Source of the DNA: a virus
Taxonomy: Duplodnaviria > Caudoviricetes
Length of the DNA stretch: 56,674 nucleotides
Strand: one strand, 5' to 3'
Virus record (IMG/VR): IMGVR_UViG_3300034021_000712
Span: 1-56,674 of that record
Position 1 is the first letter of the stretch; each line of letters opens with the position of its first letter. Made by a program: the position numbers and the translations under genes. Below the pieces are notes generated by a model, which had not been told where the DNA came from, searched no databases, and saw only the letters and a list, made by a program, of their open reading frames with translations. Below are positions 6,026 to 36,169 of this stretch, in pieces.

Positions 6026-6070
6026 ATTCTATGCCATAAAAAAGGGGCTGTCAAGCCCCTTGTGCCAGTT
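6026..6070 (-). promoter_or_regulatory. Sigma70-type promoter fused to a terminator-like hairpin
   Basis: Minus strand AACTGGCACA-AGGGGC-TTGACA-17 nt-TAGAAT; inverted repeat AAGGGGCT/AGCCCCTT followed by a U-tract. Confidence 0.8.
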
Positions 6071-6540
6071 CAGAAATTGCCCTTGCCCTGACCCACATCA
6101 AACACCCAGATGCCACGCTCAATCCACATATTCACTACCCTTTGCCGATCATCAAATACACCAAGAATGTTGTGTGTCTTCTCAATTTCGTCAGCAATCT
6201 CACCTTTGACAACAGCATCATCACGATGATCCTTATACTTTCTCATATAGATCTCATCATAAAAGATTTCGTTGTCAGTCAACCACTTGATCGTTTGTTC
6301 TTTGTAGTCATCTGAACGACCAGAAACAATAATCAAGTCAACTTCCTGATCATTACGAAGTGCTTGAAATACTTTCTGAACTGCTACATTAGGTGTATCA
6401 TTTACCAGACCAGCATTCCAAGCATCCCAGTTGCGGGGCTTTGTTGCCACATATTGTCTACGATGGCGAACATCACAGATGGTGCCATCAAGATCAAAGA
6501 TATAGCAATTCCTGTTTTGTTGCGCATTCGACATAATCAA
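6070..6540 (-). CDS. HAD-family polynucleotide 3'-phosphatase (T4 PNKP C-terminal domain-like, stand-alone)
   Basis: IFDLDGT motif I, VSGR motif II, MR...RDD..VK, VFDDR..VV.MW...G. Confidence 0.88.
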   Translation of the reverse strand: MIMSNAQQNRNCYIFDLDGTICDVRHRRQYVATKPRNWDAWNAGLVNDTPNVAVQKVFQALRNDQEVDLIIVSGRSDDYKEQTIKWLTDNEIFYDEIYMRKYKDHRDDAVVKGEIADEIEKTHNILGVFDDRQRVVNMWIERGIWVFDVGQGKGNF

Positions 6541-26093: not shown

Positions 26094-27001
26094 TATCCTC
26101 TAATTTCCATAGCATAGAATGCAGAGATCGATCTCATATCATTAGAAACACGATCATTAATATATAGATCTCTAACTGAACCACTCCAAGATGCGGATGC
26201 TCTTACTCTATATCTAACAGGAACCGTAACACCAGGAGAATCTCTAAAGATTATATGATGGTTATACATATAATCTGTAGTATCTTGACCATCATATACA
26301 GTAGAAATTGATCCTGCACCAACGTTTGAATTTCCAGAAAGCCCAGAAGTTAAAAGACTACCATCTCTGGAAAAGCCAAATGATGTTACATGTGTTGCAG
26401 AGCAATTAATCATTGCAACTAAAAGTATCTTCGAATTTGTATGAGTGGGCTGAATAGAAATTTCTAGTTCAGGAATGTCAGCACTGCTATCCAGATCTTG
26501 TGAACGAATTAGATATCTTGTTGGTGATGAGTGAACCATTCTAACCTGAACAATTTCACCTTCTCTTAGGTCATTATCCTCACCACCCATGATGAGCCAA
26601 CTTGCACCATTTTCAATAGTTACTGTGTAATTATTGTCAACCTGAACAGGACCAGCAGTGAATCCATTTGTGAATTCTGCACCACCATTAGCAACAGGAC
26701 CTACAGTTAAATTTTCAGAGATATTGGTTCCATTTGTTCTGATGATTGACTTTTCACCAACAGAAGGACCGCCACCACCAACATCTGTCCAACCAGGAAC
26801 ACCCTGTCTAGCATCAGCAACCCAAATTTGAGCTTGGTCTGCAGTGGTATTGAATACCATAGTTCCCACTGCAGGAGTTCCCAAAGCATTAATTTGGGTT
26901 TGATTTAAGCCTTGCAGTGTGAGTGATTGTGATAGTGAAAGTGTGGTCATTAATGCTCTAGTAGAAGCATTAATTTGTGACTCTATAATTTTTGTTGCCA
27001 T
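26093..27001 (-). CDS. Tail fibre-like structural protein
   Basis: GTMVFNTT, SIIRTN..ISEN, GPV.V...VTI, C-terminal ISIQP...SKILL...MEI domain. Confidence 0.75.
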   Translation of the reverse strand: MATKIIESQINASTRALMTTLSLSQSLTLQGLNQTQINALGTPAVGTMVFNTTADQAQIWVADARQGVPGWTDVGGGGPSVGEKSIIRTNGTNISENLTVGPVANGGAEFTNGFTAGPVQVDNNYTVTIENGASWLIMGGEDNDLREGEIVQVRMVHSSPTRYLIRSQDLDSSADIPELEISIQPTHTNSKILLVAMINCSATHVTSFGFSRDGSLLTSGLSGNSNVGAGSISTVYDGQDTTDYMYNHHIIFRDSPGVTVPVRYRVRASASWSGSVRDLYINDRVSNDMRSISAFYAMEIRG

Positions 27002-32778: not shown

Positions 32779-34104
32779 CTACCATCCTGATTGAAAGAAG
32801 TTTATAAGTCTTAATTTTCCACCAAAAGCTGGGGCGGAAATCGGTCCCCCAAAAGAAACACCAACCTGACCTACGTTATTTGTTGATAATAGCTCAGCAT
32901 TAGCATTTGGGAATTTAATAGTAACTGCTTCTGTAATATTAGAAGCATCTATTGTAATTATACCATTAAGTGACTGTGGATTATTTATCTGAACATCTTC
33001 TAAAACTTTATTAGCAAGTGTTTGACTTGCTAATGTTGATACTAAAGTATTTACTCCTAGAGTATTTAAATCTTCTGCTGGGAATCTAAATGGTATAGTT
33101 CTGTTTTCACCAACATTACTAATATCAAAAGATACTTTTTTAGTTTCAAAAGTAGTATCAGAAAAAATTGCACCTTTATACACTTTGTTTGTCAGTGTTT
33201 GTGATGCATCAGTTCCAACCAAAATAACATTAAGGTCAGGGAATGTTACTGTTCTATTCTGTGTAATACCCGAAGCGTTAAACGAGACTTTTCTAGTTGG
33301 AACCTGAGGATCAGTAGATGGAGTATTAGAGAATGTTGGGTTAACTAAATTTTTATTGAAAGCATTCTGCTCAGAAATATCATCCAGTAATGTAGATTGC
33401 CCAGGACCTACACCAAAATCAGGCAGTCTATAAATTTTAGTTCCAGGTGCTTCCCATGCATCACATTCGAATCTTGCAATCTTTGTAGTATCAGAAGATC
33501 CTGTTATTGAAAAATCATTATCTTTAATGATAATTGATTTATTGGTAATAGTTTGAACAGTATCATTACCAAGAAGAGTGGTAGAAGTAAAGGATCCAGT
33601 ATTAGGAAGAGCAAATCTTCTAACACCAGATCCTGTAGAGATACCAGATACTTCAAATGTTGCTAGTTTACCAGGGTTTTGATCGTCAATAATGAAAAAC
33701 TGTGAATCAGTAAATCTAGAAGAACCATTAACAGTAAAATACCCAGATCCTTGTGGGGTTATTTGAATATTAGAGTTAGACGAAAAGGTATCAATTCCTC
33801 TAATAACAATGGTGCTAGAACCATCTGTATTTTGTGTTCTTGAATTATAAAGAGCAGTGGTTCCGAATGAAATTCCAATTTCATTTACTGCAGACTGATA
33901 TAATCCAGTGTCACGATCTAGGTCAAAAGCTAAACCTGGATTTGCTTTTGATCCTGCAGAAACACCTTTGAATAACTGATTGATTTTTGCCTTCCTATTT
34001 GGAATCAAAGGATCCGAAATGATAATAGGCAAAAAAGCCTCTCCAGTTACAACTGAATCGGCTAGTGGTTCTAATTGAGATATTCTTTTATATAGTAAAG
34101 CCAC
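32779..34104 (-). CDS. Virion structural/fibre shaft protein
   Basis: KRISQL, PGLAFDLDRDTGLY, repeated QT(I/L)(T/A)NK shaft motifs. Confidence 0.75.
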   Translation of the reverse strand: MALLYKRISQLEPLADSVVTGEAFLPIIISDPLIPNRKAKINQLFKGVSAGSKANPGLAFDLDRDTGLYQSAVNEIGISFGTTALYNSRTQNTDGSSTIVIRGIDTFSSNSNIQITPQGSGYFTVNGSSRFTDSQFFIIDDQNPGKLATFEVSGISTGSGVRRFALPNTGSFTSTTLLGNDTVQTITNKSIIIKDNDFSITGSSDTTKIARFECDAWEAPGTKIYRLPDFGVGPGQSTLLDDISEQNAFNKNLVNPTFSNTPSTDPQVPTRKVSFNASGITQNRTVTFPDLNVILVGTDASQTLTNKVYKGAIFSDTTFETKKVSFDISNVGENRTIPFRFPAEDLNTLGVNTLVSTLASQTLANKVLEDVQINNPQSLNGIITIDASNITEAVTIKFPNANAELLSTNNVGQVGVSFGGPISAPAFGGKLRLINFFQSGW

Positions 34105-34129
34105 TATTATCTACTGGTGCAGTTTTCTC

Positions 34130-34137
34130 TATTTATA
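34130..34137 (-). promoter_or_regulatory. T4-type late promoter
   Basis: TATAAATA on the minus strand, 25 nt upstream of the structural gene run. Confidence 0.75.
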
Positions 34138-34144
34138 AACTTTA

Positions 34145-34217
34145 TGCCCGTGGTCGGATTCGAACCAACACTGTATGGATTCTAAGTCCACCTTCTCTAC
34201 CGTTGGAATACACGGGC
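34145..34217 (-). tRNA. tRNA-Leu(UAG), short variable loop
   Basis: GCCCGTG/CACGGGC-A acceptor; GTGGA-CTTAGAA-TCCAT anticodon arm; 5-nt variable loop; TTCGAAT T-loop. Confidence 0.92.
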
Positions 34218-34292
34218 TGGTGGCGGGGGGTGGAGTTGAACCACCTACCTGAAGCTTATGAGACTTCTGTGCAACCGTTACACTTCCCCACT
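34218..34292 (-). tRNA. tRNA-Met(CAU), initiator-like acceptor, encoded CCA
   Basis: AGTGGGG/CCCCGCC-ACCA with 1:72 mismatch; GAAGT-CTCATAA-GCTTC anticodon arm. Confidence 0.88.
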
Positions 34293-34304
34293 ATGAAAGG
34301 AGTA

Positions 34305-34338
34305 AATATACTCCTGTTTTTTGAGGATGTCAACCCTC
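34305..34338 (-). promoter_or_regulatory. Sigma70-type promoter for tRNA-Met/tRNA-Leu
   Basis: GAGGG-TTGACA-TCCTC; TTGACA-17 nt-TATATT. Confidence 0.78.
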
Positions 34339-34341
34339 TAC

Positions 34342-34490
34342 GCTCGGCTCGCCACCTATTTAGTTATCGAGCAAATAGGAATCTCGGCGGGAGTATACCT
34401 CCATCCGCACCAGTCGGCATTTATATTGCCCATCCGACGAGGGCAAATGGGTCATATTGACTCCACCACCTAATTTACACAAACTAGGAA
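34342..34490 (-). ncRNA. Structured ncRNA: three tandem pseudoknot/hairpin modules with UGGYG (wcaG/manA-like cyanophage RNA)
   Basis: TTGCCC/GGGCAA stem with loop GTCGG pairing CCGAC; CGAG/CTCG stem with loop CCTATTT pairing AAATAGG; CCTAGTTT/AAATTAGG stem; each followed by TGG(T/C)G. The family name is recalled, not searched. Confidence 0.72.
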
Positions 34491-34708
34491 AGAAGTAACT
34501 GCAATAACTTTGCTAGTTCGATCATAAAGAAAAAACTACAAATAATTACAGTATCCCACATTTTGTGTTTTACAAAAGATGGGATAAGAAGTGATCCAGC
34601 TATTAGTTTAATAACTAAACCAAACTGCAAATCTCCCCAAACCATAATGAAGTAACCGATAATGACAAATGCATTACCAACGTATCGCAATAAAGTGAGA
34701 TTAGACAT
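34484..34708 (-). CDS. Small three-TM membrane protein
   Basis: 74 aa hydrophobic ORF (LRYVGNAFVIIGYFI...HKMWD). Confidence 0.75.
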   Translation of the reverse strand: MSNLTLLRYVGNAFVIIGYFIMVWGDLQFGLVIKLIAGSLLIPSFVKHKMWDTVIICSFFFMIELAKLLQLLLS

Positions 34709-34710
34709 AA

Positions 34711-34756
34711 GGGGGTTCTCCCGACCAGGGCTAGTTTTAGGTCATACCGAGACCTA
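34711..34756 (-). ncRNA. 5' module of the manA/wcaG-like structured RNA
   Basis: TAGGTC-TCGGTAT-GACCTA hairpin, then TGGTC and a GGG-AGAA-CCC hairpin, immediately 3' of tRNA-Ala. Confidence 0.5.
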
Positions 34757-34827
34757 TGGAGAATACCAGAGTCGAACTGGTGATTGATGCTTGCAAAGCA
34801 CCCGTTTTACCACTAAACTAATTCCCC
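34757..34827 (-). tRNA. tRNA-Ala(UGC)
   Basis: GGGGAAT/ATTCTCC-A with the G3:U70 identity pair; loop TTTGCAA. Confidence 0.92.
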
Positions 34828-34865
34828 TGGCGGCCCTTTTGTTAACGGGGTAGAGCCGAACCCCG
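34828..34865 (-). ncRNA. Putative small H-type pseudoknot RNA ending in CCA
   Basis: CGGGGT-TCGGCTCT-ACCCCG stem; loop CGGCTCT pairs with downstream AGGGCCG; ends CCA flush with position 1 of tRNA-Ala. Confidence 0.55.
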
Positions 34866-34870
34866 AGACT

Positions 34871-34900
34871 ACTTTAGAGTATGGACCTCTATTTTGTCAA
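34871..34900 (-). promoter_or_regulatory. Sigma70-type promoter
   Basis: TTGACA-18 nt-TAAAGT. Confidence 0.6.
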
Positions 34901-34901
34901 G

Positions 34902-34986
34902 CGGAGGGAGGGGGAGTCGAACCCCCAAGGCTTTTACACTCAACTGTTTTCAAGACAGGTTCCGTCGCCAATCGGATTGCCCCTCC
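34902..34986 (-). tRNA. tRNA-Ser(UGA)
   Basis: GGAGGGG/TCCCTCC-G; loop CTTGAAA; long variable arm; G73. Confidence 0.92.
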
Positions 34987-35026
34987 ATAATGTGGGGGTT
35001 TCCCCCCAACACTTCCTTCACACGGA

Positions 35027-35098
35027 AGCCCCCGACAAGATTCGAACTTGCGACCAGCGGTTTACAAAACCGCTGCTCTACCACTGAGCTACAGAGGC
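35027..35098 (-). tRNA. tRNA-Thr(UGU)
   Basis: GCCTCTG/CGGGGGC-T; GCGGT-TTTGTAA-ACCGC. Confidence 0.93.
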
Positions 35099-35104
35099 AT
35101 ATCC

Positions 35105-35371
35105 CTATAAAGGAATATCTTGTGGATTTTCAATGTGCTCCTCGATTTGGAATAAGATTGGATGACAACCTTCCATAATCAAGTAGTTACTATATCTATA
35201 CAAGTCTTCCATGTCATAAGATGCCATTTTCGGATTTGCATTGTATAGTTGTTCTTGAAAGTCTTCCTCTAACTCATCAAAAGTGAATGGCATTTTGTTT
35301 ATAAAAAACATTTCGACAACACCAACGTTAGTTAATGTGCAGTATGCTTTTTCGATCTTTAGTTGTTTCAT
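35105..35371 (-). CDS. Hypothetical protein within the tRNA cluster
   Basis: 88 aa, MFFINKMPFTFDE...YLIMEGCHP. Confidence 0.75.
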   Translation of the reverse strand: MKQLKIEKAYCTLTNVGVVEMFFINKMPFTFDELEEDFQEQLYNANPKMASYDMEDLYRYSNYLIMEGCHPILFQIEEHIENPQDIPL

Positions 35372-35385
35372 GGAAGACTTCCACT

Positions 35386-35409
35386 TTCATAGAATATTTA
35401 TTCTATGAA
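35386..35409 (-). promoter_or_regulatory. 11-bp inverted repeat containing a late-promoter-like ATAAATA
   Basis: TTCATAGAATA-tt-TATTCTATGAA immediately 3' of tRNA-Leu(UAA). Confidence 0.55.
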
Positions 35410-35482
35410 TGCCCGTGGTCGGATTCGAACCGACCCTTGAACGATTTTAAGTCGTTTGCCTCTTCCGCTGGGCTACACGGGC
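35410..35482 (-). tRNA. tRNA-Leu(UAA), short variable loop
   Basis: GCCCGTG/CACGGGC-A; AACGA-CTTAAAA-TCGTT; 5-nt variable loop. Confidence 0.92.
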
Positions 35483-35492
35483 ATTTGAGACA

Positions 35493-35520
35493 ATCTTAGC
35501 AGAACTGCTCGGATTGTCAA
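35493..35520 (-). promoter_or_regulatory. Sigma70-type promoter
   Basis: TTGACA-16 nt-TAAGAT with extended TG, inside a GACAATC/GATTGTC inverted repeat. Confidence 0.65.
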
Positions 35521-35521
35521 G

Positions 35522-35594
35522 TGCTCCTTGAGGGGATCGAACCCACCTTAGCCGAATTATGAGTTCGGTGCATTCGCCAGATTGCTAAAGGAGC
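35522..35594 (-). tRNA. tRNA with CAU anticodon (elongator Met or lysidine-modified Ile2)
   Basis: GCTCCTT/AAGGAGC-A; CCGAA-CTCATAA-TTCGG. Confidence 0.88.
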
Positions 35595-35600
35595 AACAGG

Positions 35601-35672
35601 TAGGAATACTGGGAGTTGAACCCAGACTACCCCGTTATAAGCAGGGCGCTCTAACCATTAAGCTATATTCCC
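35601..35672 (-). tRNA. tRNA-Ile(UAU)
   Basis: GGGAATA/TATTCCT-A; CCCTG-CTTATAA-CGGGG. Confidence 0.9.
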
Positions 35673-35704
35673 ATGAAGCGATTAATCAACTATAATCGCT
35701 TCAT
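35673..35704. repeat. 12-bp perfect inverted repeat directly 5' of tRNA-Ile
   Basis: ATGAAGCGATTA-atcaacta-TAATCGCTTCAT. Confidence 0.75.
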
Positions 35705-35832
35705 ATTCGACCTGTTGCGTTCAATCGATTCTTTAAAGCTTGTCTACGCTTTTTAGCAGAGCGTAATGCTTGAGGCTTCAAATGTCTCTTCTGCTCTTTT
35801 TTAGAGTGATGCTGCCAGTTTGGAAGATTCAT
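35701..35832 (-). CDS. Small basic protein (43 aa)
   Basis: Manual translation MNLPNWQHHSKKEQKRHLKPQALRSAKKRRQALKNRLNATGRI; promoter upstream. Confidence 0.7.
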   Translation of the reverse strand: MNLPNWQHHSKKEQKRHLKPQALRSAKKRRQALKNRLNATGRI

Positions 35833-35855
35833 TGGTTTCTCTCGACCTCATTACC

Positions 35856-35895
35856 TATTTAGAATAGCATGGAGGGGGCTCTCCGTCAACCCCCT
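35856..35895 (-). promoter_or_regulatory. Overlapping early (sigma70) and late promoters
   Basis: TTGACG-17 nt-TATTCT overlapping CTAAATA; -35 enclosed by AGGGGG/CCCCCT. Confidence 0.75.
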
Positions 35896-35914
35896 GATTT
35901 GAGTCTCATGTGAC

Positions 35915-36169
35915 CTATTCAACAATCTGAACAGGTTTCGAAAACTCTTGTGTCAGTTCACCTATAGATTCACTGACATACTCACGAACTTCTTGTGGAT
36001 TTGGTTCCATCTCTAAAGCATCTGGAACTATAGGGGTGTTTGCAATAGGTGTCATTAAGACTACACCCTTTTCTGTTTTGATTTTTAGAGTATATCCTCT
36101 CTCAACTAAAGAGAAGCAAAAATCAAAGTTAGTTTGAATTTCTTGGATATCTACTGAAATAATATTCAT
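35915..36169 (-). CDS. Hypothetical protein
   Basis: 84 aa; EIQTNFD...LVERG...I.TEKGVVLM.P loosely resembles Phd/YefM N-termini. Confidence 0.65.
   Translation of the reverse strand: MNIISVDIQEIQTNFDFCFSLVERGYTLKIKTEKGVVLMTPIANTPIVPDALEMEPNPQEVREYVSESIGELTQEFSKPVQIVE

Follow-up and report, generated by a model that had tools for sequence, protein, structure and literature searches.

A conserved CCA-ending pseudoknot RNA encoded directly before tRNA genes in cyanophage tRNA arrays

A structured RNA between two tRNA genes

The 73-nucleotide (nt) spacer between tRNA-Ser (which ends at 34901) and tRNA-Ala (which starts at 34827), on the minus strand of the virus record IMGVR_UViG_3300034021_000712, almost certainly encodes a real structured RNA, in which a covarying hairpin is followed by an H-type pseudoknot whose encoded 3′ CCA abuts the tRNA gene. 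The record was analysed at its full length of 56,674 nt and is called the window below. A sequence-only reading had described the spacer (34900-34828, minus strand) as TTGACA, 18 nt and TAAAGT, followed by CGGGGU-U-CGGCUCU-ACCCCG-UUAACAAA-AGGGCCG-CCA, which is indeed what stands there, and had proposed a 6-base-pair (bp) stem whose loop forms 7 pairs with the 3′ segment. This proposal is borne out: a search for covarying copies among phage and metagenome contigs yielded 46 distinct homologues with compensatory changes in both stems, so that the pairing of the stem-2 3′ strand with the stem-1 loop, which makes this an H-type pseudoknot, has evolutionary support. The unit is ~65 nt long (73 nt including a variable 5′ flank), not 38 nt. 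Its parts are as follows.

34828-34900, minus strand: the whole spacer, a conserved RNA element (model R1, 78.9 bits, E 2e-24)
34871-34900, minus strand: sigma-70-like match TTGACA-18-TAAAGT, 10/12, overlapping hairpin 1, in the window's lineage only
34875-34891, minus strand: hairpin 1, stem UAGAG/CUCUA, 5 bp here, with the 7-base loop GUCCAUA at 34886-34880; covariation
34866-34874, minus strand: variable linker AAGUAGUCU from hairpin 1 to the pseudoknot; no conserved alignment columns
34860-34865, minus strand: pseudoknot stem 1, 5′ strand CGGGGU, partner 34851-34846; covariation
34859, minus strand: loop 1, one U that spans stem 2; invariant (T42 of the alignment)
34852-34858, minus strand: pseudoknot stem 2, 5′ strand CGGCUCU, within the stem-1 loop; covariation
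34846-34851, minus strand: pseudoknot stem 1, 3′ strand ACCCCG; covariation
34838-34845, minus strand: loop 3, UUAACAAA; AACAAA in every copy
34831-34837, minus strand: pseudoknot stem 2, 3′ strand AGGGCCG; 98.5% of cells paired
34828-34830, minus strand: encoded 3′ CCA, directly abutting G1 of tRNA-Ala

Covariation in both stems of the pseudoknot

Taken alone, the window argues weakly for the loop-tail pairing: the predicted stem-2 duplex (7 pairs, including one U.G) has an energy of -10.3 kcal/mol, which 46 of 1000 shuffled tails equalled, and the nested fold of the element is unremarkable (-18.5 kcal/mol, z -0.94). Homologues lift the predicted pairing far above chance. They were collected with pattern scans in which the seven loop and seven tail bases were left free, matching 42 viral, 49 metagenome and 15 genome stretches and giving 59 distinct matches. 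We dropped 13 of these, which lacked GGTT[AC]G[AG]CT or the GCCA end; they form 1-5 of the 7 possible loop-tail pairs and are otherwise unlike the element. The filter fixes some loop letters in the 46 distinct elements left and leaves two covarying pairs free on at least one side. Several contigs turn up among both the IMG/VR and the metagenome loci; such duplicates were collapsed by sequence. Looser pattern scans (at least 119 and at least 117 stretches) returned mostly noise and were used after filtering only. A covariance-model search detected the divergent locus L408 (60.1 bits), with the loop CUCCAAA, a compensated stem 1 (GGAG/CUCC) and a GCCA end.

Among the 46 distinct copies, all 7 loop-tail pairs are kept in 42, six in 3 and five in 1. 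The commonest loop/tail combinations are CGGCUCU/AGGGCCG (16 copies), CGGCUAU/AUGGCCG (15), and CGACUAU/AUGGUCG, CGGCUCU/AGGGUCG and CGGCUCU/AGGGCUG (3 each). Within stem 2, the pair 34853/34836 is C-G or A-U (25 and 21, plus 1 U.G), 34856/34833 is G-C, A-U or G.U (39, 4 and 4), and 34857/34832 is G-C or G.U, a change on one side. The window's nearest kin, letter-identical in the 5′ half, display one stem-2 pair changing stepwise, from G-C in the window through G.U (L236) to A-U (L293). Stem 2 is paired in 98.4-98.5% of cells in both the MAFFT alignment (A1) and the model-based alignment of 47 distinct rows (A2), which give the same picture. In stem 1, two pairs vary on both sides, among them the column pair 39-54 (G.U 21, C-G 14, G-C 11, U.G 1), and the closing pair alternates between A-U (11) and C-G (10). 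Overall, 93% of 979 cells in A2 are paired, compared with 39.6-56.2% when the partners are slid by 1-3 columns, and the observed covariation score was reached in 0 of 500 shuffles of these related sequences. RNAalifold, in which knots are not possible, chooses stem 2 over stem 1; since stem 1 covaries too, both stems must form. An invariant U.G pair is present in 47 of 47 rows, where the opposite strand would give a C-A mismatch, which indicates that selection acts on the RNA of the tRNA strand.

By general rules for H-type pseudoknots, the loop lengths (loop 1, 1 nt over 7 bp; loop 2, 0 nt; loop 3, 8 nt over 6 bp) may be able to span the stems. The AACAAA of loop 3 is also invariant in copies retrieved without constraining it. 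Small riboswitch aptamers, too, are compact H-type knots whose loop 3 is rich in A, and a ligand-sensing pseudoknot of the preQ1-I/SAM-II type would share these features; the stem-1 loop also begins UUCG like a T-loop, a hint of tRNA descent that would suit a decaying, functionless tRNA remnant. Both readings are highly improbable. No small pseudoknot riboswitch model in Rfam, preQ1-I included, matches the element at E up to 10, a tRNA or tRNA-like gene rather than an open reading frame (ORF) or expression platform lies downstream in 46 of 46 copies, and a 7-bp G+C-rich stem 2 would need no ligand. A relic is excluded by the compensatory changes in three helices.

A covarying 5′ hairpin and an overlapping promoter-like match

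Upstream of the pseudoknot, the sequence-only reading had placed a promoter driving an RNA of ~38 nt; that size does not survive the comparison, as this region instead holds the conserved, covarying 5′ hairpin of the longer unit. All 8 pairs of hairpin 1 change on both sides, and the 4 loop-proximal pairs are formed in 45-47 of 47 rows. The stem measures 5-9 bp among homologues, with many compensatory changes, and the family loop consensus is GUCCANA, which was recovered in 28 of 28 evaluable loci from knot-only patterns that left this loop unconstrained. The hairpin thus has the size of an anticodon arm, with U at loop position 2 and CCA at positions 3-5. A pairing of its loop with the D-loop of the downstream tRNA was considered and rejected, being inconsistent across copies.

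As to the promoter itself, TTGACA-18-TAAAGT is present, with hexamers at a spacing within the 16-18 nt of sigma-70-type promoters, but it is limited to the window, L236 and L293 (3 of 46 copies, one lineage) and is not conserved at the same place in the other homologues. It overlaps hairpin 1, the RNA structure conserved in all copies, with the -10 hexamer lying on the hairpin's 3′ strand. The 2.4-kb array region contains 11 sigma-70-like sites, against 5.4 +/- 2.6 in shuffles, so about half of the promoter-like matches there are expected by chance. Exact TTGACA hexamers stand right after the 3′ ends of tRNA-Met and tRNA-Ser (35520-35493 and 34900-34871, minus strand), and the array may be dotted with internal promoters. 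The window's lineage may have an internal promoter here, but this cannot define the RNA family.

It is correspondingly very unlikely that a sigma-70 promoter at 34900-34871 drives a knot-only RNA of ~38 nt whose CGCCA end pairs with UGGCG of the wcaG RNA downstream, as had been suggested. This reading can draw on the 10/12 match, on other such sites placed just after tRNAs or RNAs (35520, 34333), and on the wcaG consensus, whose conserved 3′ tail GUGGCGAGC has no pairing partner in the Rfam model and includes UGGC, which is complementary to a GCCA end. The partnership with wcaG nevertheless falls away: five complementary bases are trivial in a window with 49 TGGCG sites, wcaG occurs in 2 of the 20 other element loci within the DNA examined, and the G of GCCA is predicted to be paired in the knot. 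A T-box-like variant, in which the conserved unpaired UGGC of the wcaG tail would read GCCA ends, is much less likely than the tryptophan and decoy readings given below.

An encoded CCA and a tight junction with the next tRNA

A GCCA end is present in 46 of 46 distinct copies, and in all of them a tRNA or tRNA-like gene comes next. ARAGORN places the tRNA start -1 to +3 nt past the CCA in 44 of 46 copies, flush in 28; in the remaining 2, an odd tRNA-Ala-like gene, whose D region is enlarged, begins after 1 nt. The downstream genes are tRNA-Ala (24), tRNA-Val (10), tRNA-Pro (5), odd tRNA-like genes (3), tRNA-Trp (1) and tRNA-Leu (1), plus the 2 odd Ala-like ones, while the distance to the gene upstream varies widely. 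The abutment of CCA and tRNA 5′ end noted earlier in the window is therefore a family-wide rule, whichever tRNA follows, and the tRNA-Met/tRNA-Leu junction at 34218/34217, cited as a parallel, is likewise flush, with its CCA encoded. With a 14-mer pattern that left the 3′ end free, all copies again ended in GCCA followed by a tRNA, in at least 12 distinct contexts among the matches listed, plus L009, which is cut at its 5′ side.

In the same arrays, tRNA-tRNA gaps are ≤3 nt in 97 of 271 cases and ≤0 in 24 of 271, and CCA is encoded by 51 of 271 array tRNAs only. The difference in tightness between element junctions and array tRNA gaps gives a Fisher p of ~1e-15, with related sequences counted individually. 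Against these 271 array tRNAs and junctions, the always-encoded CCA and always-tight junction of the element are special.

The two odd Ala-like genes (L041, 4911 to about 4990; L267, 343 to about 420) begin 1 base after the element and receive no ARAGORN call; they have the loop CUUUGCAAG and the acceptor GGGCUCA/UGAGUCC.

The constant position directly 5′ of a tRNA would also suit a cis-acting leader that aids the maturation, folding or stability of the next tRNA, or insulates precursor tRNAs, and is degraded after the RNase P cut; leader sequence does influence substrate recognition by RNase P, according to the part of PMC12710915 consulted. We consider such a role quite unlikely. The element precedes at least 6 kinds of tRNA, and the identical 38-nt knot (100%) stands before tRNA-Ala in the window and before tRNA-Pro in the cultured cyanophage S-SZBM1. 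Conversely, among viral loci picked solely for the cyanophage-type tRNA-Ala, the element occurs in 2 of 120 (L005, L408) and directly before that tRNA-Ala in 1 of 118 evaluable ones. A discarded leader would, moreover, not need a covarying anticodon-sized hairpin, a knot and an invariant CCA.

Comparison with known RNAs

Rfam cmscan at E up to 10, run on 33800-36000 and 34820-34910 of the window, gave no match on the element. Membership of the curated Rfam families was accordingly rejected, for tRNA, the tymovirus tRNA-like structure (TLS), preQ1 and others alike. A gathering-level scan of 20 homologous loci returned only tRNA, wcaG (2), manA (1), abiF (2) and a group I intron (1), and the weak hits of the tymovirus model RF00233 fell on true tRNAs. 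ARAGORN (-m) found no transfer-messenger RNA in the window or in the 46 contexts. The element lacks a tRNA cloverleaf; what it shares with tRNA is the NCCA end and an anticodon-type stem with a 7-base loop and U at position 2.

The closest architectural likeness is to plant-virus TLSs (tymovirus TLS-Val, RF00233; tobacco mosaic virus, TMV, TLS-His), which also have an H-type pseudoknot acceptor arm, a CCA end and an upstream anticodon-like hairpin. The sequence-only reading had invoked these pseudoknotted acceptor arms, and as an analogy this is apt. Unlike them, however, the element lies in the tRNA array of a DNA phage instead of at the 3′ end of an RNA genome, has no T-loop/D-loop elbow, spans ~65 nt in two domains and is missed by the family model.

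The part of PMC12710915 consulted reports that the in vitro substrates of bacterial RNase P include H-type pseudoknots ending in (G)CCA, namely the TLSs of turnip yellow mosaic virus and TMV and a biotin aptamer with an added 3′ GCCAC. The aptamer resembles the element as a small H-type pseudoknot with a 3′ RCCA, and differs in being artificial and inefficiently cleaved (same source and extent). RNase P cuts such pseudoknot substrates in loop 1, again as stated there. By analogy, this suggests that the element could itself be bound or nicked by RNase P at U34859/C34858. Cyanobacterial RNase P is not known to favour CCA-bearing substrates, so that an RCCA contact is doubtful there.

Non-tRNA RNAs matured by tRNA-processing enzymes include the stable RNAs C and D of the phage T4 tRNA cluster and mammalian mascRNA. 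Like the element, they are co-transcribed with tRNAs or shaped like them, with release of the RNase P type; to our knowledge, none of them is a pseudoknotted, CCA-ending acceptor mimic. The other RNAs of this array niche, wcaG (RF01761), manA (RF01745) and abiF (RF03085), several of which abut tRNA 5′ ends, are unrelated to the element in sequence and structure, and their models miss it. No description of the element was found in the literature consulted, including the parts seen of PMC10690425, PMC9964418 and PMC2864571; it may be among the 10,006 viral RNA candidates tabulated in the supplement to PMC10690425, which lay outside this search. On this comparison, the element is an undescribed motif of TLS-like architecture that belongs to neither the TLS nor the tRNA family.

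Restriction to phages and accessory status

BLAST searches with the spacer matched four cultured cyanophages, S-RIM50, one S-RIM8 isolate, DSL-LC03 and S-SZBM1, the sole carriers among 50,697 phage records. Among prokaryotes, represented by one genome per species (185,579), 15 pattern matches were obtained, of which the best scored 12 bits with model R1, and none is a true copy. Within S-RIM8, one isolate among those listed carries the element (L002, KX349286). By these observations the element is an accessory module specific to phages, and it does without a partner gene of its own.

In KX349286, ~330 nt of RNA modules are inserted between tRNA-Thr and tRNA-Ala (L002, 1448-1775). For the other S-RIM8 isolates, the query match reaches only ~3 nt upstream of tRNA-Ala, and five of these records show tRNA-Thr annotated next to tRNA-Ala under the match.

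Anti-defence cargo is often accessory, and the presence of the element in one S-RIM8 isolate and its absence from the others listed would fit a trans-acting phage small RNA unrelated to tRNA mimicry, for example one that neutralises a host defence or toxin protein. The array and RNase P would then be a cheap expression cassette and the CCA a remnant of maturation. Other small structured RNAs also stand directly before tRNAs of cyanophage arrays, among them abiF RNA (RF03085) in S-SZBM1 and L013, wcaG and manA, and Table 4 of PMC9964418, the part of that paper used here, lists RNA modules in cyanophage tRNA arrays. This explanation is rather unlikely: it leaves unexplained an invariant encoded GCCA among neighbouring tRNAs of which 51 in 271 encode CCA, as well as a helical stack of acceptor-arm length and a loop that matches that of tRNA-Trp at 6 of 7 bases.

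Matches to at least half of the sampled words were found in 15 DNA sequencing runs, from lake and freshwater metagenomes, and small shares in 5 RNA runs. The RNA contigs include one of 268 nt over wcaG and the small ORF (34350-34578, 1 mismatch) and one of 151 nt that matches tRNA-Ala only; many of the RNA-run contigs on tRNAs come from other organisms.

A proposed tRNA mimic released by RNase P

We propose that the element is carried as a 'gene' in cyanomyovirus tRNA arrays and would be transcribed with the tRNAs. Its RNA has two parts, an anticodon-arm-sized hairpin (at least 5 bp, loop GUCCANA) and the H-type pseudoknot. The two stems of the knot, stem 1 with 6 bp and stem 2 with 7 bp (or with 6 bp and one G left free), can stack into a 12-13-bp helix. 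Ending in a single-stranded G-CCA, this helix matches a tRNA acceptor/T minihelix in its size and its end. RNase P cleaves at the 5′ end of tRNAs, and its cut at the next tRNA, 0-3 nt away, would free ...GCCA-OH; 1-3 extra 3′ bases would be trimmed, as in CCA-encoding tRNA precursors, and in the window the 3′ processing of tRNA-Ser would define the 5′ side of the element. Without a T-loop/D-loop elbow, the route through RNase Z and the CCA-adding enzyme is probably unusable, which would explain why the CCA is always encoded and the junction always tight. That the CCA is encoded and the 3′ end borrowed from a neighbouring tRNA argues that the RNA needs a free CCA end. Once released, it would most likely mimic tRNA in trans by means of its CCA end and anticodon-like loop, the putative target being a host or core-phage factor that handles tRNA. 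From the observed structure, conservation, context and phage restriction we infer release, stability and mimicry, and the whole chain, that of a phage-specific tRNA-like small RNA with a CCA end released by RNase P and acting in trans as a tRNA mimic, is somewhat probable in our judgement.

Several points weigh against this proposal. The tRNA and tymovirus models RF00005 and RF00233 do not match the element at E up to 10, no ARAGORN call overlaps it in 46 of 46 contexts, and it has no T-loop, D-arm or 5′ acceptor strand. The variable hairpin-1 stem (5-9 bp) and linker fit poorly with a rigid L-shape read at both ends by one enzyme. Unless the last pair of stem 2, a C-G, comes apart, the single-stranded end is CCA rather than NCCA. 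Close packing of tRNAs is common in the arrays (36% of junctions), and flushness alone is not unique to the element. As the patterns fixed GTCCANA, GGTT, ACC, AACAAA and CCA, the invariance of these motifs is partly ascertainment, for which the controls are partial; the aligned sequences are also related, and shuffle statistics overstate their independence. In four metatranscriptome runs, contigs lie over tRNAs, wcaG and the small ORF and none over the element, though contigs cannot show ends or absence.

A more specific form of the proposal draws on tRNA-Trp. The anticodon loop of phage tRNA-Trp is CUCCAAA in 8 of 8 genes, to which the element loop corresponds as xUCCAAA, L408 being identical, and a GCCA end is present in 6 of 8 tRNA-Trp genes. 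The major bacterial Trp identity elements are G73 and C34C35A36, as stated in the part of PMC9976931 consulted. The element would then be a minimal, elbow-less mimic with two major Trp identity marks, the CCA of its anticodon-like loop and a G73-CCA end, which tryptophanyl-tRNA synthetase (TrpRS) might charge or sequester; alternatively, a sacrificial CCA end could soak up host defence toxins that modify or cut tRNA acceptor ends. This form is unlikely. A strict Trp mimic is opposed by the absence of a cloverleaf, by acceptor-like pairs that differ from the listed A1-U72 and G3-C70, by loop position 37, which is A, U or C, and by the varying hairpin length. The element and a real tRNA-Trp coexist in 8 of 46 loci, which also ruled out the element as a tRNA-Trp replacement.

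The array in the window and other RNA modules

The window is a fragment of a T4-like cyanophage of 56.7 kb, with a CheckV completeness estimate of 31%, and its closest DNA matches are Synechococcus myoviruses. Genes for a baseplate hub/tail lysozyme, a virion structural protein and a tail fibre flank the minus-strand array, in which eight tRNAs are arranged in the order Ile, Met, Leu, Thr, Ser, the 73-nt spacer (34900-34828), Ala, a 74-amino-acid (aa) ORF, wcaG RNA, Met and Leu. The immediate neighbours of the element are as follows.

34901-34986, minus strand: tRNA-Ser (UGA), upstream neighbour
34757-34827, minus strand: tRNA-Ala (UGC), downstream neighbour; called by ARAGORN, 66 bits in the Rfam scan

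With model R1, the element has a single strong copy in the 56.7-kb record. A possible second copy at 26716-26774 (plus strand), with the end ...GGACCGCCA, was rejected as a chance match (15.7 bits, E 0.0024, antisense within a 302-aa ORF).

The wcaG RNA (RF01761) lies inside the array at 34341-34446 (minus strand) and scores 49.6 bits against a gathering score of 42; downstream of it come a promoter-like site at 34333-34305 (11/12), tRNA-Met and tRNA-Leu, and no protein gene. The 40-nt spacer between tRNA-Thr and tRNA-Ser (34987-35026, minus strand) holds a G+C-rich hairpin (GUUGGGGGGAAACCCCCAC).

Further modules were observed in other arrays. Beside the element, several phages have a conserved module (…CUGGUAGUCUAUUGGUAAGGAC…GGUUCGAUUCC…) that resembles a tRNA and whose anticodon region is aberrant (L002, 1565-1640; L003, about 1395-1470; L004, about 1722-1790; also L067, L244 and L300); its ARAGORN call is either tRNA-Leu(caa) or tRNA-???, the latter with an anticodon of two bases, and it was not found in the window. 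A hairpin module with the core CUGGAAAGAUAAACCAGAAUGCCG in a longer stem recurs between tRNAs of S-RIM50, S-RIM8 and S-SZBM1 (L001, about 1449-1490; L002, about 1448-1489; L004, about 1968-2010); it has no gathering-level Rfam match and was not found in the window either. An abiF RNA directly precedes tRNA-Ala in S-SZBM1 (L004, 1854-1890, 55.7 bits) and in the related contig L013 (1093-1129, 50.6 bits), and sequence of the abiF kind also precedes tRNA-Ala in several tRNA-Ala loci (e.g. L363 and L434). A group I intron (RF00028, 62.5 bits) is present in the cyanophage tRNA array of L253 (6342-6533), near an unusually long tRNA call of 117 nt (6061-6177).

Implications

Plant RNA viruses are the textbook case of tRNA mimicry through a pseudoknotted acceptor arm; for a DNA phage, we found no report of it in the literature consulted, and no Rfam 15 family matches the element. 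Cultured phages that carry the element are available in S-SZBM1, S-RIM50 and DSL-LC03, and S-RIM8 offers one isolate that has it beside others that lack it. A modest role would still leave the element a well-supported addition to the poorly understood RNA modules of cyanophage arrays (wcaG, manA and abiF-like). It would also offer a very small natural model (~38-65 nt) of acceptor-end recognition by RNase P, synthetases or toxins. If the tryptophan or decoy form of the proposal is true, this would be the first tRNA-like structure of a DNA phage to enter tRNA biochemistry, and an RNA that is charged, or that acts as a decoy for enzymes reading CCA ends, would reveal a new class of interaction between cyanophages, which are abundant worldwide, and their hosts.

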